Shown in pieces: positions 1-6,000 of a DNA stretch of 43,550 nucleotides. A program made the position numbers. This stretch comes from Deferribacterales bacterium. GTDB lineage: Bacteria; Chrysiogenota; Deferribacteres; Deferribacterales; Geovibrionaceae. Numbering within the stretch: position 1 is the first letter of the stretch; the number at the start of each line of letters is the position of its first letter. Location of the stretch: NCBI GenBank assembly GCA_050253335.1, contig JBFWJG010000015.1:1-43550 (forward strand), given 5' to 3'.

Positions 1-3000
1 AAGACCGGAACTTCTTCACAAAGCCCCGCTGAATGATCATGACAGGGCATTTTTACGCAAACTAACACTTGACAAAATAAAATCCAGAAGGTTATATGTA
101 GCTCTTCTTCACTATCCTATGAAAGAGAAGGAGAAGGATGTCGTCGCAACCTCCATCACCAACATGGATCTGCATGACATCTCAAGAAGCTGCACCACCT
201 ACGGTGTCAGAAAATACTTTGTAGTCACTCCCCTCTCAGCCCAGCGCGAAATCGCATCCAGGGTCCTGGACCACTGGCTGGAAGGTTACGGCGCGACTTA
301 CAACGCAAACAGGAAACAGGCTTTCATGGGCACCGCCCTTAAAGAAAGCCTTATGGAAGTTTTGGAAGAAATCGAACGTGTGGAGGGCAAGCGACCCCGC
401 ATCGTAGCCACCACCGCACGCACCGATAGAGCCAATATAAGCTATCCGCAATTGGCGCAGGCCTCCCTTGATGAACCATGCCTTCTCATGTTCGGAACGG
501 GTTGGGGCTTTACGGAAGATGTTTTTCGTCTCGCTGACAACATCCTCCAGCCGATTGACGGTACAGGTGAGTTTAATCACCTTTCCGTGCGGAGCGCTGT
601 GGCAATTATACTGGACAGATTGAACAGGAACTCAGGAGGTCTGTTGTGAAGAACAAGCTGATCGCGTCAATCGAAGCTGAACAGATGAAAAAGGAACTTC
701 CTTCTTTCCGTCCCGGCGATACCGTGAAGGTAAACTTCAGGATCGTGGAAGGAAACAAGGAACGTGTTCAGCCTTACGAAGGACTTGTAATAAGAATTCA
801 CAGAAACGGCGCTTCATCCACTTTCACTGTAAGAAAGATGGTGGGCGACATAGGCGTGGAAAGGATTTTCCCCTTCTATTCACCCAGAATTGAAAGCGTT
901 GTTGTTACACGCACTGGTAAAGTAAGACAGGCACGCCTGTACTACATGAGAAACCTCAAAGGCAAAGCTGCGAGAATCAAAGAACGCAGGAAAGGCTTCT
1001 AAGCTCAGGCTTGGAAAAACTAACGAATTTCCGCAAGTGCCTGCTGTTTTCTTGAACCGCAGGCGGCTGTAATAAAGAGGATGTTAAAATGAAGAGCTAT
1101 TGGGCAAAACCTGATGACCTCGAAAAAAAATGGTTCATTGTAGACGCTGACGGACTCGTTCTCGGCAGACTCGCAAGCAATATAGCCATGATCCTTATGG
1201 GGAAAAACAAACCCCAGTACACTCCCACCATTGACACGGGAGACTTCGTTGTCGTTGTAAATGCTGAGAAATTCGCAGTTACAGGCGACAAAATGGTAAA
1301 CAAGAAGTACTACAGACACTCAGGCTACATCGGCGGCCTCAAAGAGAGAAGACTCGAAGAGATGCTTGATAAAAAACCTGAGGAAGTTATAAGGCTCGCC
1401 GTTAGACGTATGCTTCCTAAAACTAAGCTTGGCAGCGCCATGCTCAAGAAGCTTAAAATCTACAGCGGCGAAGCTCACCCCCATGAGGCTCAACAGCCTG
1501 AAAAATTAGAGCTTTAGGAGGCAGTTCATGGCTGGATACAACTACGGAACCGGTAGAAGAAAAACCTCTATCGCAAGAGTTTTTATAAAACCCGGAAACG
1601 GCACTGTTACCATCAACGGAAAAGAACCCTCTGCTTATTTTCAGAGGGACTCGCTGATTCAGATCAGCCTTCAGCCCCTTGCAAAACTTAACGCCGAAAA
1701 GAAATTCGACGTTCTTGTTACTGTGAAAGGCGGCGGCAAAGGCGGTCAGGCAGGAGCTATCAGACACGGTCTCGCAAGAGCCCTCACTGAGTTCGATGCT
1801 GAATTCAGAGCTCCCCTCAAGAAAGAAGGCTTCCTCACAAGGGATGCAAGAGCTGTGGAAAGAAAGAAACCCGGCCTTCCCAAAGCAAGGAAAAGCCCCC
1901 AGTTCTCCAAACGTTAATCAACACCGCAAAATACTCAGAAGGAGCCGGAAACGGCTCCTTTTTTTATGCAGTGTACCGTAAGCTTCTCACTTCAATCTGT
2001 TTTACCATCTGCTGTGCCGTTTTCTCTGCGCTTCTCCTCTGCCGCACAGTTTCAGCAAAAAGACTCAAATCCGTTCCGTTCTTTCATCTCCCTAGCAAGT
2101 TTCCTTCAACAGACAAAATAACTCGTATTCATGATTATATTTATCAATATACTCATGAATAAATATTGTCCGTGACGCTGAAAGAAAGGAAAATTCATCT
2201 CCTCCCTGCAGCCTGAAGCAAATAACAATTTTTGTCGAGTTTTCAACATTCCGGATGTGGAAAGGCTGTGGAGAAAAAAACCTCAAACCTACAACAAGTT
2301 CTGCTTAACATAACTTAACACTGCTTTTTTCCACATGTTATCCGTGACTTATAACATTTTCAATACTGATGTGGGTTTTCCCCTGTCAAGCACTTTTTTC
2401 TCCACAGATTTGTGGAATCTCTATTGAAAATAATGTCTGATAAATGTGAAAACCCCTTCAAATAAGGATTTGAGGTTTACTGACTATTTTTTAGTCACCA
2501 AAATATACATTATAAAAAAAATGTGAACCCATACTCTTTGATTTATATATTCGCATTATTCGATATTATTACATTTTCTAATGATAGCTTTTTTCATCAA
2601 CACTCACTTTTTTCATGGAATATTTACTGTTTTTCATTGTGGAAAACTTGTTGATAATTTTAGGCTCAGAATCCCCTGTATACAATGATCACAGGATATT
2701 ACAAATTATTACCTTTAATATCATACAGATACAAAGAGTGCCCATTTTCAGAGGCTTTAGGCTGTCAAGCATTTTTTTCTCCACAGATTTGTGGAATATC
2801 TGTTAAGAATCCATTTATTGCAGATGAAGATTTGCTTGGGAAAAGGGTTCCCGCTGATCGGCTAAATTTTGTGCACTGAAAACCCGGCAGTAAAAAAATA
2901 AAGTTATTTTTAAGACGCATTCAGCCTTCTTTACTCAGAGCAAAAAAAAGCCGCAGACTTAAAATCTGCGGCTGTGTGGTTTAGTCTCCGAACTTGTCAG

Positions 3001-6000
3001 TTAAGCCCGAACTCTGCAAGAAGCATGTCTATATCGTCCTGCGTTGCTCCGCTTATGCTTTCTCCAGTCTCGTCTTTTTTGGCCTTTATAATGCCCAGAA
3101 TTGCGCCGATTCTCGCACCGACATCCTCAACGGACTTTATAACCTTTCTCAGTTTCTGCTCTGTTATATCCTGAAACTCAAGAGCATGGAGTATTCCGAA
3201 ACCGAGACTTTCCGCCAGCTCTATATCTGATTCTATGTGATCGATTTTTTTAAGCAGGCTTTTTGCATCCTTCTTGTACACAAGGTCTTCAAAGTCTTCA
3301 ATATCGCTGAGGAACTGGGAGTAGAAGGCAGTCATCTTGTCGGCCGCCTCCATCAGGTTCATGGTTGCTTCCTCGGTTTTCTCATTGACCTGCTCAAGTG
3401 ATTCAACAACAACTGGCATACTGTCTTTTGACATAATAATAGTCGGGTCAATTTCATCGACTTTTGTTTTGGTATTAAGGATCAGTCTGAGAAGTTCGCC
3501 GATTTCGCCTTTGATGTCTATTCCGAGATCCACGGCATCGCCGTTGATAATTTTCTGTGAAAGGTTTTTGAGTTCTTCAAGGGAGTCTGTCTCAATGAAC
3601 ATTCCCCTTCCTGAAGGAGCATCGGAAGCTGTTTTCACAGCAAAAACACCGGGCTCCTCAAGCCTCACTGTTTCGGGTGCAGATTTCTGAACATCAAATG
3701 ATTCCGCTTCAAGGAGGATATCTTCTAGATCTTCGTCAGCCTGTGCAGGCTCGGCTTCAGCTTCTTCAAGTGCCTCAGCGGTGCTTTGAGCAGTGAGCAG
3801 CTCTTCCATGGAGGGTCCGGAAAAGTCTTCTCCGGAGAGTTCATCATTAATCTCTTCTTCCGAAGCGGCAACAGCGGCCGCTTCATCAGCGAAGAAGGAG
3901 GAAACGCTGAACTCCTCCTCCCCTATTTTTTCATTTTTTTTTTCCTGTTCTTTTCTCTGGCGGTTAAGCTCTTCCGTTTCTTTTTCTCTTTTAGCAAGTT
4001 CCATTGCTATAAGAGCATCAAGCTCGTCCTGAACCACATGCCCCTGATCGCCTTTGACCATGTGGTCGCTCTGGCTGAGTGCGTCATTAAGAATATCCTC
4101 TACGTCCGCATCCCCCTCAGCTTCATGGAATTCGGGCGCCGCCTTTTTTCTGTTAAGCTCGTCGGTTTCCTCTTCTCTTTTGGCAAGTTCTTTTGCGATG
4201 AGGTCATCTATATTGTCAAGCTCATCACTTCCGCCTTCATCGTCAGCGGCAGTTTCAGGTTCCTCTGCTGTGTCCTCTTCGGCAATCTCGCTTTCAACCG
4301 CGTCTGCAACATCGTCATAATTCACAACAGGTTTCGCTTCTATGGCAGTCTGTCCGAGGAAGCGTTTTCTGAGGTCGCTTTCAGCAACAGCTTTCCCTTC
4401 AGCTATAACCGTGTCTATATCAAGGAGGATTATAAGTCTGTCGTCATACTTGCAGATTCCCAGTATGTATTCCTGACCTATGGAGCCCACAAGGGGAGGG
4501 GTGGGGTCTACCATGTTTTTGCTGATTCGGATAACTTCCGTAACTTCATCAACAACAAAGCCGATATGCTCACTATCGAAACGGACAACGATTATTCTCG
4601 TTTCCTTGTCAAAATCCATTTTATCGAGATTGAATCTTACCCTGAGATCCACAACGGGAATAACCTTGCCCCTGAGGTTCATCACCCCGAGAACAAAGGA
4701 ATCGGTCCGGGGGACAGAGGTAATCTCCACCGTGCGGATGATCTCCTGAATTTTGAGAACATCTATGGCATATTCTTCATCTCCGAGTTTGAGCCCTACA
4801 AGCTGGACTATCTCCTTCTCTTCAAGTGAATCAAACTCTTCATCCAATCCAGCAGGATTTACCGGCTTTAGATTGCTCATTGAACACCCCTTTACAGCTT
4901 TGCGAGAAGCTGCTGTCTTACGTCATCAATGCAGGAGTTCACTTCCCTGCTGACGAGGCTTGTGTAGAAAGGTTTTAAGAGCTTAATGCTCTCGCTTACT
5001 TTAACATCATAAGGTATGAACCCTATTTTTTCAATATCTATACTGAGGTATTTTTTCGCAACTGTTTCAAAACCGTAAAAAACATTAAGTTCTTTTCTGG
5101 TTTTCAGCATATTGAGGATTATCCCCACCTTGTATGAGGAGGCCGCCTCTTCCGTTTTTGGCACATAAGCAGGGTCGATCTCCCTTACTGCTTCCCTTAT
5201 GGAGGCAAGACTGGGGAAGTTCATGCTCTTGCTGCGGATTTTCTTGCAGATATCCGCAAAGCGGTAGTCCTTCCTGAGGAGCTGCTCCACTTTCCTGTAC
5301 AGCGCGATTTTAAGAAAGCCGTAAGAGTTTTCCAGTGATGTCGGTTCGCTGTTCATTATCATAATTTTTTTATCGGCAGAATTGAAAAAATCTATCATGT
5401 TATAGCTTGTTCCTGCGCCAAGATCCATGACAACATATTCGTATTCAAGGGTTTTAAGTCTGTTAAGAATTTTCAGTTTTTCGTAGTTGGTGATATGAGC
5501 CATGCCGAGCACATCGCCTGTGCCGCCTATGAAATCAACACCGGCGGGACTTTTCTGTATTATGTCCCCGATGCGGAAGCTCTCTTTCAAAAAATTATAA
5601 AGACCTGTTCCCGGAAGCTTCAGCCCCACGAAGTCATGCAGGTTCGCACCGCCCAGATCCGCGTCAACAAGGAGAACCCTCCTCCCCGCGGCAGTGAGCG
5701 ACATCGCAATATTCGCGGAAAAAAAACTCTTACCTACCCCGCCTTTACCGCTGGCAACGGAAATTATCTCAGCCATAACTCCCCGCAACAATGTATTTCA
5801 GGTGTTCTGTCTGTACTTCACAGCAACATAATATATCACAAAATATGTTATAACGCCAAATATTAATCCAATCAGGTGAGTGCCCACAAAAAAAGGGAGC
5901 AGAACCGACCTGGCCGCTTCGGCTATCTGCGTTATTGTTATATTCGCCCAGTCCACATCAATGGGAGTGCTGTCCCGCAGAACCCAGCGGCCGAACTTGT

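Follow-up and report, generated by a model that had tools for sequence, protein, structure and literature searches.

A conserved A run in the cheW-cheZ fusion gene of Deferribacterales is a probable transcriptional slippage site that may dose a CheZ-type phosphatase at the receptor array

We analysed a window of 43,550 nucleotides from a Deferribacterales genome (contig JBFWJG010000015.1), the minus strand of which carries a gene that fuses cheW to cheZ (Table 1). Both the open reading frame and the Pfam search agree with the genome-wide survey's note on this DNA, which had described a CheW domain joined via an acidic linker to CheZ in a long form of 627 aa. The CheW domain scored 133.4 bits against a Pfam gathering score of 23.5. 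The MinD/ParA-type ATPase gene located upstream is a conserved neighbour of cheW-cheZ and was matched in 57 out of 65 locus records. Besides the fusion, the genome encodes a second, stand-alone cheZ in a cheY-cheZ-cheA cluster. An Rfam search of the window returned tRNA only.

Table 1. Features of the cheW-cheZ locus, with positions counted along the window.
Feature	Position	Strand	Basis or remark
cheW-cheZ fusion gene	2997-4880	minus	ORF, 627 aa in the templated frame
CheW domain, aa 26-160	4401..4805	minus	Pfam PF01584, E 5.4e-39, over cut-off
Conserved helical repeat, copy 1, aa 219-247, [IL]DxLIAxELxKRExETEEL	4140..4226	minus	pattern and helix in model
Conserved helical repeat, copy 2, aa 282-311	3948..4037	minus	predicted short product terminates just past this copy
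Candidate A10 slippage site (T10 on plus strand), codon 313 onward	3934-3943	minus	
TGA in frame after +1 A (A11)	3931..3933	minus	predicted 316-aa product
TAG in frame after -1 A (A9) or +2 A (A12)	3923..3925	minus	predicted 318/319-aa products
12-bp mRNA hairpin	3892..3923	minus	10 nt past the run (9 nt past the A_AAA_AAT heptamer); z -2.8
CheZ domain, aa 431-627, long product only	3000..3590	minus	profile match to E. coli CheZ; weak top Foldseek match
D571-x3-Q575, counterpart of the E. coli CheZ DLTGQ motif	3156..3170	minus	alignment
C-terminal helix	3000..3041	minus	aligned with the C-terminal peptide of E. coli CheZ
Terminator-like hairpin and U tract, end of cheW-cheZ	2949..2973	minus	
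MinD/ParA-type ATPase gene	4892..5791	minus	upstream, 11 bases before the cheW-cheZ start

The CheZ part matched its Pfam family at residues 459-606 with an E-value of 2.4e-4, in agreement with the sub-threshold 2e-4 given in the survey's note, and the PF04344 scores of 21.5 (whole protein), 29.1 (domain alone) and 24.5 remained below the gathering score of 30.7. A profile built from 45 sequences matched E. coli CheZ (1KMI_Z) at E 4.9e-8, with profile positions 22-192 on chain positions 14-213. In CheZ proteins, D-x3-Q is the active-site motif and the C-terminal helix binds CheY; both elements of the fusion align to 1KMI_Z. The D-x3-Q motif is kept in 57 of 58 CheZ parts from orthologous genes, while the longer FQDITEQ, which had been ascribed to every CheZ part, occurs in 53. 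Structure modelling of the CheZ part returned two long helices (pLDDT 63.5) for which Foldseek ranked CheZ first, at a weak E of 0.042 and with nothing at E<=0.001. Judged by its family, the C-terminal part of the fusion is a predicted CheZ-type CheY-P phosphatase.

The helical repeat between the two domains was found in 111 copies over the loci, and within its own genome is confined to the CheW-CheZ protein. By eye, it resembles the CheY-binding tail of CheZ; a search of the ESM Atlas gave no match for the repeat region. In a structure model of the short form, which was poor overall (pLDDT 46.8), the repeat helices alone were fairly confident.

Stop codons lie 0 and 2 codons past the A10 in the two off-frames, and the computed product sizes are 315 aa for A8, 318 aa for A9, 316 aa for A11 and 319 aa for A12, as compared to 627 aa for the templated A10, which fits the immediate stops and the short CheW of about 316-319 aa put forward earlier. 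Three A/T runs of ten exist in this genome, and in two of them, in cheW-cheZ and dnaX, the A lies on the sense strand of a coding sequence; our genome-wide count thus bears out the statement that these are its only coding A10 runs. Based on codon use in a crude set of 2222 coding sequences, about 65 sense runs of at least nine A would be expected in the genes of this genome and eight were seen, indicating that such runs are avoided. Across 63 Deferribacterales genomes, runs of at least ten A add up to 412, with 1-17 in each genome, and the only one of genome G037 is located in cheW-cheZ.

Orthologues of the fusion gene are present in 58 of the 63 genomes, so that the wide spread noted before holds, but not the count of 60. 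No orthologue was detected in G014 and G016 (99% complete), nor in G036, G039 and G061 (64-78% complete); from G014 and G016 the fusion, the free cheZ and a flagellin match are all missing together. We examined every one of the 58 orthologues, of which 30 had been covered before with a run of 9-14 A in each, and found that the linker holds such a run, with a length mode of 10, in 57 of them, namely 55 of the 56 that have a 5' part and both genes that are split across contigs. The survey's note placed the run at the same position throughout. We found it usually 12-25 codons behind the nearest recognised repeat copy, but its exact position, its phase and the residues it encodes vary between lineages. 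In four genes of genus g18 the run follows 75 codons past the repeat; here, the pattern missed the second copy. A second run occurs in 26 of 55 genes. As for codon phase, the last run begins in 0 or 1, and the one located upstream in g2 and g4 begins in 2. Both off-frames stop within three codons in 49 of 55 genes, compared with 8.4% of 10,159 linker positions. The remaining 6 genes are without near stops in both frames, meaning that the closure within 0-3 codons described for 25 scored genes applies to most of the order and not to all of it.

Of the 55 scored genes, 11 from at least three lineages have a templated frame that breaks at the run; nine of these need one additional A and two need one A less to restore the CheZ frame. 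On a tree, these breaks correspond to 3-4 state changes, and a single clade of broken genes was rejected (p 1e-6; 45 rows, ten of them broken). With one genome per species, frame state is uniform within genera g2 and g14 (each 4/4 out of frame) and g18 and g4 (13/13 and 7/7 in frame), and mixed across f6. In all ten broken genes with the CheZ part on the same contig, the CheZ frame stays open from the run to the CheZ domain, a stretch of 140-230 codons in g2 and g14. All four g2 genes are broken, as reported earlier, but G019 is not a clean frame-break case because its CheZ part has two in-frame stops. A metagenome scan yielded at least five further loci, two out of frame at the run, one in frame, one with an extra upstream break and one apparently chimeric; locus L218 has an additional break at an A8. 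Genome G009 also carries a hard-wired 272-aa CheW-plus-repeat gene. Public assemblies contain short-form proteins from otherwise in-frame lineages, one of them on a 16-kb contig, so that variation in the DNA itself or misassembly is also at play.

The broken lineages might represent a simple gene split, in which the run marks the end of CheW and an internal start serves for the translation of CheZ, with a CheZ-only third product possible in some lineages. Consistent with this, an ATG or GTG with a lenient Shine-Dalgarno (SD) match is found at the CheZ domain start in 4/4 g14 and 13/13 g18 genes, and a Met is positioned 15-18 codons upstream of the CheZ domain start in g2. However, G035 and G037 have no such start, the SD matches are weak and sit at some distance from the codon, and by chance alone 10.6% of the internal ATG/GTG codons have a match. 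A split also sits poorly with the stretch that is still open between run and CheZ in g2 and g14, and leaves unexplained the run and the stops kept in 44 in-frame genes, and we judge it very unlikely. Even less credit goes to the proposal that the run is a mere lysine-rich stretch of A-rich codons and that the breaks are homopolymer assembly errors. Such errors do occur, as illustrated by the extra A8 break in L218 and the extra stops in G019, and lysine tracts are common in these linkers, where 35 of the 83 K3+ stretches lack a run of at least nine. Yet 57 of 58 genes have kept a run despite its genome-wide avoidance, with stops behind it and with a position and phase that shift between genes, and errors are unlikely to recur in 4/4 species of two genera, including the one-contig genome G018. 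This explanation is thus largely excluded.

At the RNA level, length variants were observed in one relative, G049. All 24 sequence runs available consist of assembled contigs. In RNA run X9 the contigs break at both A runs, where a +1 A branch (depth 285) accompanies the templated branch (depth 532) and a +2 A branch has a depth of 508; the differences in depth along the gene are not rankable and were not used as evidence. No indel was listed in X9 at an A7 of the same gene. In X22 (depth 923; kind not on record, DNA-like) both A runs are crossed unchanged and with one allele, X11 (depth 16) had no length variant, and neither did X8, which like X22 is DNA-like but not proven DNA, at the A runs. 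Variants were hence seen in one of two sequence runs on record as RNA, and three others (X8, X11 and X22) are without them, but unchanged runs prove little because contigs drop variants. Since X9 derives from a gut community, its branches could also stem from a mixture of strains, from variable DNA or from slippage of the reverse transcriptase (PMC5737552).

These data also bear on phase variation, in which replication slippage would toggle the CheZ part per cell and each cell would make one product. The range of run lengths (9 to 14), the 11 of 55 out-of-frame genomes and the short-form proteins in public assemblies would fit such switching, and the X9 variants could be community DNA variants. 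On the other side, frame state is uniform within g2, g14, g18 and g4, which speaks against phase variation because fast switching would mix states, and the length has its mode at 10. Moreover, the deep run X22 of the relative shows one allele, and the same design is present in dnaX, an essential gene that is not switchable off. We therefore regard phase variation as quite unlikely.

Ribosomal frameshifting of the E. coli dnaX type on a uniform mRNA, aided by a hairpin, was likewise considered as the main source of two products. A -1 frameshift of this type is marked by a heptamer in fixed phase together with an upstream SD sequence and a downstream hairpin. The hairpin in Table 1 is kept in 4/4 genes of this genus, with 11 consensus pairs of which one has a two-sided change, and PMC3711429 describes poly-A runs as serving both mechanisms. 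Behind the run, 11 of 55 genes have a hairpin with z<-2, most of them from f1 and f6, but none was found in f2, f5 or g18, and 14 of 129 control windows from f1 linkers pass this threshold as well. An SD-like sequence precedes the run in 10 of 55 genes, a G follows it in 14 of 55, and no conserved structure was detected upstream of the run. Across the orthologues, the signal set with A_AAA_AAG (the heptamer given in PMC3711429), fixed phase, upstream SD and downstream hairpin was not found. Further evidence against this explanation is that the run phase varies, that both frames are closed, that some lineages need +1 and others -1, and that indels were seen in RNA contigs of G049. Frameshifting as the principal mechanism is accordingly unlikely, although a ribosomal contribution may exist in this genus given its hairpin. 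The choice between transcription and translation, which the survey's note left undecided, leans towards transcription owing to the RNA variants in the relative and the lack of an order-wide ribosomal signal, with the genus hairpin as a counterweight.

The programmed slippage site proposed in that note is supported by the rarity and avoidance of runs, the near stops, the repeated frame breaks and the run-less fusions outside the order (see below). We have good confidence in slippage as the mechanism proper, and consider it probable that programmed transcriptional slippage at the run, as in Thermus dnaX, sets the share of array-bound CheW carrying a phosphatase; if slippage is granted, the dosing function itself is slightly favoured. 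RNA polymerase would gain or lose an A at the run and produce a mixed mRNA pool from a fixed DNA. Those mRNAs in the CheZ frame would encode the full CheW-repeats-acidic linker-CheZ protein, and the remaining mRNAs would reach a stop after a few codons and yield CheW plus repeats alone (315-319 aa here). From what is known of the families, both products would use their shared CheW domain to dock in the receptor-CheA array, and the CheY-P phosphatase would come with the long product only. Slippage would then determine the fraction of array positions with a phosphatase, beside the free CheZ of the cheY-cheZ-cheA cluster. More tentatively, one or two slippage sites behind the repeats might generate CheW isoforms of stepwise length in fixed ratios, carrying one repeat, two repeats or the complete CheZ fusion, with the repeats as binding modules through which short forms capture CheY or hand it on without destroying the phosphate, and with lineages retuning the system by run length, a flip of the templated frame or an added run; we find this possible but rather doubtful.

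The slippage mechanism is already known, but the published literature searched yielded no report of it in chemotaxis, nor a description of a CheW-CheZ fusion, which Wuichet and Zhulin 2010 may list. In the literature covered, well-supported cases of chromosomal productive slippage in bacteria are rare (dnaX, mxiE, tssM and IS elements), and those in frame easily escape detection. The cheW-cheZ gene would offer an order-wide case with natural controls, namely flipped frames, two-site lineages, a hard-wired short paralogue and site-less sister fusions, and would tie recoding to the question of the CheZ amount at the receptor array. Annotation would miss one product in each genome of the order that has the gene, the short one if the gene is in frame and the long one if it is not. 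If true, one gene doses the off-switch of the swimming signal by means of a short CheW and a long CheW-CheZ.

CheW-CheZ fusions also occur in Nitrospirota and other groups, with 56 fused genes among 80 loci. Their domain order is as here, CheZ is over the Pfam cut-off in 8/8 scanned, none of the 56 has a run of at least nine in its linker (the linkers are shorter, 84-300 nt), and the repeat was not apparent in eight proteins inspected; judged by their sequences, these fusions would make one product. The closest parallel is dnaX of Thermus thermophilus, which yields tau and gamma through transcriptional slippage as described in PMC5009743 and PMC1088944. Following the same reports, Thermus dnaX has at least nine A in the coding sequence, stops close by in both non-zero frames, a full-length protein from the templated frame and a short product without the C-terminal domain, and the same is seen or predicted for cheW-cheZ. 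The dnaX gene of Deferribacterales, with A9-10 at one place in 30/30 genes examined and mostly with near stops, has this design as well. Unlike Thermus dnaX, cheW-cheZ encodes a chemotaxis adaptor-phosphatase fusion and not a replisome subunit, a switch of its templated frame has taken place in at least three lineages, and two runs occur in 26 of 55 genes. The out-of-frame lineages resemble Citrobacter rodentium tssM1 and Shigella mxiE, as these are presented in PMC4256274 and PMC1088944, in that a nucleotide must be gained or lost at A10-14 for the long product; tssM1 has an A11 run, and both of its forms are required at a set ratio. In contrast to these secretion-system genes, in-frame and out-of-frame versions of cheW-cheZ coexist in one order. 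With respect to function, the fusion can be compared with CheA-long/CheA-short and CheZ of E. coli and with ChePep-CheZ of H. pylori, which according to PMC7750401 serve to bring CheZ to the pole; in E. coli, CheZ is bound for this purpose by CheA-short, a second product of one gene. In those systems a separate CheZ is bound non-covalently, whereas in cheW-cheZ it is covalently tied to CheW, and while CheA-short is without the N-terminus, the second product predicted for cheW-cheZ is without the C-terminus.

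We judge the A10 run in the cheW-cheZ fusion gene, a chemotaxis gene, to be a genuine recoding site that extends across the order. The encoded protein has a CheW domain at aa 26-160 (Pfam, E 5.4e-39), and its nearest named relatives, from Geovibrio, share 82-84% identity with it. The run starts at codon 313. We computed the products of altered run lengths and found that A11 (one A gained) gives an immediate stop and a 316-aa product, A9 (one A lost) a stop two codons later and 318 aa, and A12 and A8 products of 319 and 315 aa, respectively, so that both other frames close promptly, as the genome-wide survey's note had claimed. 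Its statement that A10 in coding sequence is limited to the fusion gene and dnaX in this genome also held: there are three A/T runs of ten, and these two are the ones that lie in coding sequence as sense A. Sense A runs of at least nine numbered 8, compared with about 65 expected from resampling codons with amino acids fixed over a crude gene set (2222 coding sequences).

Directly upstream lies a gene for a MinD/ParA-type ATPase, a conserved neighbour in 57 of 65 locus records and possibly an array-positioning partner. A candidate replication origin, with a 58-nt direct repeat and nine 9-mers that resemble the DnaA-box consensus, lies in the 1.1 kb that separate rpsI from the fusion gene. Further along, three HTH repressor-like genes surround a tRNA gene, followed by ORFs that by eye resemble phage portal and terminase genes; the region is probably a prophage remnant.

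Coordinates of the fusion gene, its run and other features (window contig unless a genome, contig or locus record is named)
Feature	Position	Strand	Remark
cheW-cheZ fusion ORF	2997-4880	minus	encodes 627 aa
A10 run	3934-3943	minus	T10 on plus strand
MinD/ParA-type ATPase gene	4892-5791	minus	
Candidate replication origin	2240-2798		
Probable prophage remnant	6326-12631		
tRNA gene	7167-7240		
dnaX, own genome	G000:C22:24059-25714		
Free cheZ, own genome	G000:C23:16737-17374	minus	
ORF with three CheW matches, own genome	G000:C14:44212-45555		reaches contig end
Stand-alone short gene, genome G009	L063:2332-3147	minus	
84-nt contig of sequencing run X9	L025:1437-1520		

We searched all 63 genomes of the order and fetched every candidate locus. 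Fusion orthologues were found in 58, which upholds the order-wide presence claimed earlier and corrects its figure of 60. Fifty-six genes have their 5' part on a single contig, a count that leaves out G003, G005, G036, G039 and the paralogue G009b; in 55 of them, 9-14 consecutive A lie between CheW and CheZ. Two further genes split across contigs have A10 on the CheZ side, bearing out the conservation previously described for 30 of 30 genes. The last run is A10 in 38 genes; 26 of the 55 hold two runs, the first of which comes after the first repeat copy in genera g2, g4 and g18. The sole orthologue lacking the run (G033, L061) also lacks the D-x3-Q motif. Runs of at least ten total 412 in the 63 genomes (1-17 per genome), and the only one of G037 sits in the fusion gene. 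In 49 of 55 genes (all except those of G037, G044, G045, G047, G048 and G059), stops close both non-continuing frames no more than three codons on, a pattern seen at 8.4% of 10,159 background linker positions from in-frame genes; since kin are not independent, these run and stop counts are descriptions, not tests. No particular lysines fix its place: codon phase and distance from the preceding repeat vary by lineage. That it is neutral we find scarcely credible.

The CheZ frame is broken at the run in 11 of 55 genes: all four of g2, exactly at the run as had been claimed, all four of g14 (in G040 a contig end truncates the gene) and three of family f6. One added A restores the frame in nine of them and one lost A in two. 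Fission of the gene into separate parts in these lineages is very unlikely; in the 10 broken genes whose CheZ part shares the run's contig, no stop interrupts the CheZ frame between the run and the CheZ domain. A tree built from 45 of the 58 CheZ rows, omitting G019 and some close kin, needs 3-4 changes of frame state and rejects a single clade (p 1e-6). Frame state is uniform within genera, which argues against fast phase variation at the run, a reading that we regard as quite improbable. In the G019 gene (L066) the break is joined by two in-frame stops within the CheZ part; faulty assembly or decay into a pseudogene may account for this. In g14 and g18 an internal start might yield a product with CheZ alone, but the Shine-Dalgarno matches are weak.

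Transcriptional slippage is the likely mechanism: RNA polymerase would slip on the run and produce transcripts of mixed run length. All 30 dnaX genes examined (L075-L104; 60 were found) carry A9-10 at a single position, about 45-65 codons before the gene end, and in most of them the two other frames soon meet a stop; the gene of G020 is out of frame at the run. Throughout the order, dnaX probably uses Thermus-type tau/gamma slippage, and this known design suggests that the order's polymerase slips on such runs. Signals for ribosomal frameshifting are not conserved over the 55 genes: we found Shine-Dalgarno-like sequences in 10, a G after the run in 14, a hairpin at z<-2 in only 11 and no conserved structure upstream, and consider this mechanism unlikely overall. 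A ribosomal share is possible in the own genus, because it keeps a hairpin of 12 bp located 10 nt downstream of the run, in which the four sequences show one two-sided change.

To look at the RNA level, we used the locus of the relative G049, which has two A10 runs; 24 sequencing runs matched, all as contigs, which hide variants, and four were compared. In X9, a community sample recorded as metatranscriptomic and without paired DNA, contigs break off at both A10 runs. The first has a +1 branch at depth 285.5, where the templated branch reaches 532.5; the second has a +2 branch at depth 508.3. For an A7 of the same gene the comparison lists no indel. In X22 (flat depth 923, kind not recorded), X8 (depth 20, probably DNA) and X11 (depth 16, recorded as RNA), one contig spans both runs with no variant. 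The gain of As in X9 fits the added As described for Thermus dnaX in the excerpts consulted of PMC5009743, and the X9 variants support transcriptional slippage without proving it; reverse transcriptase can itself slip (PMC5737552, in excerpt). X9 also holds an 84-nt contig of the second run and adjoining downstream bases at depth 10,676, which greatly exceeds that of its neighbours. Public assemblies also contain short forms from lineages with an in-frame gene, and these may derive from RNA or DNA.

The CheZ match of the fusion protein (aa 459-606, E 2.4e-4) is below the Pfam cut-off. A profile of 45 sequences covered nearly the whole length of E. coli CheZ (1KMI_Z; E 4.9e-8), with D571-x3-Q575 aligned to its DLTGQ motif, and the last helix aligns with its C-terminal peptide; we take these to be the catalytic and CheY-binding parts, respectively. 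D-x3-Q is present in 57 of 58 CheZ parts; the longer FQDITEQ, previously claimed for all parts seen, is exact in 53. A structure model has two long helices (pLDDT 63.5), and Foldseek ranked 1KMI first, if weakly (E 0.042). By homology the part would work like CheZ, though under the cut-off. A second, free cheZ, above the cut-off, lies between cheY and cheA and is matched in almost all genomes with the fusion. No CheW match was found in the 14 kb of this cluster on C23 that we examined, and for this reason the fusion may supply its CheW. In G014 and G016 (both 99% complete), fusion, free cheZ and flagellin were all not found and the cluster's CheA is matched at 39% only; besides these, the fusion was not found in three genomes that are 64-78% complete.

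The fusion is wider than the order. A CheZ profile search found CheW-CheZ fusions beyond it, two named Nitrospirota and Leptospirillia, and the 80 outside loci fetched (L135-L214) comprised 56 fused, 23 CheZ only and one split. A run of nine occurs in no linker of the 56, genes at 33-35% GC included, a comparison weakened by much shorter linkers (84-300 nt); the A-run site was seen only within the order. Such short-linker fusions without the run are common in Nitrospirota (56/80 loci), and no description of them was found in the literature searched. Slippage itself is already known, and automated database names already show both domains. The literature searched, which leaves out most subscription papers, mentioned neither a CheW-CheZ fusion nor a chemotaxis gene with slippage; the words chemotaxis, cheW and cheZ do not occur in the first 300,000 characters of PMC5009743 or in PMC3711429 (main text plus two of its three supplements) (further literature, in excerpt: PMC12887009, PMC5088516, PMC9321776, PMC11896075, PMC1088944).

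The short form ends right after a repeat, [IL]DxLIAxELxKRExETEEL, of which the loci hold 111 copies (1-6 per gene). The repeat is modelled as long helices; the repeat region has no look-alike in the ESM Atlas, and the repeat no match outside the fusion protein in the own proteome. The second contig of G009 (C2, 308 kb) encodes a stand-alone 272-aa protein of CheW plus one repeat, without CheZ, and this hard-wired short version suggests that the short form is useful by itself. Both forms would dock at the receptor-CheA array through CheW, and the long form alone would bring the phosphatase there. In the excerpts consulted, this proposal has parallels in E. coli CheA-short, which recruits CheZ (PMC7750401), and, for the short/long pair, in tssM1, which requires a set ratio of its two forms (PMC4256274).
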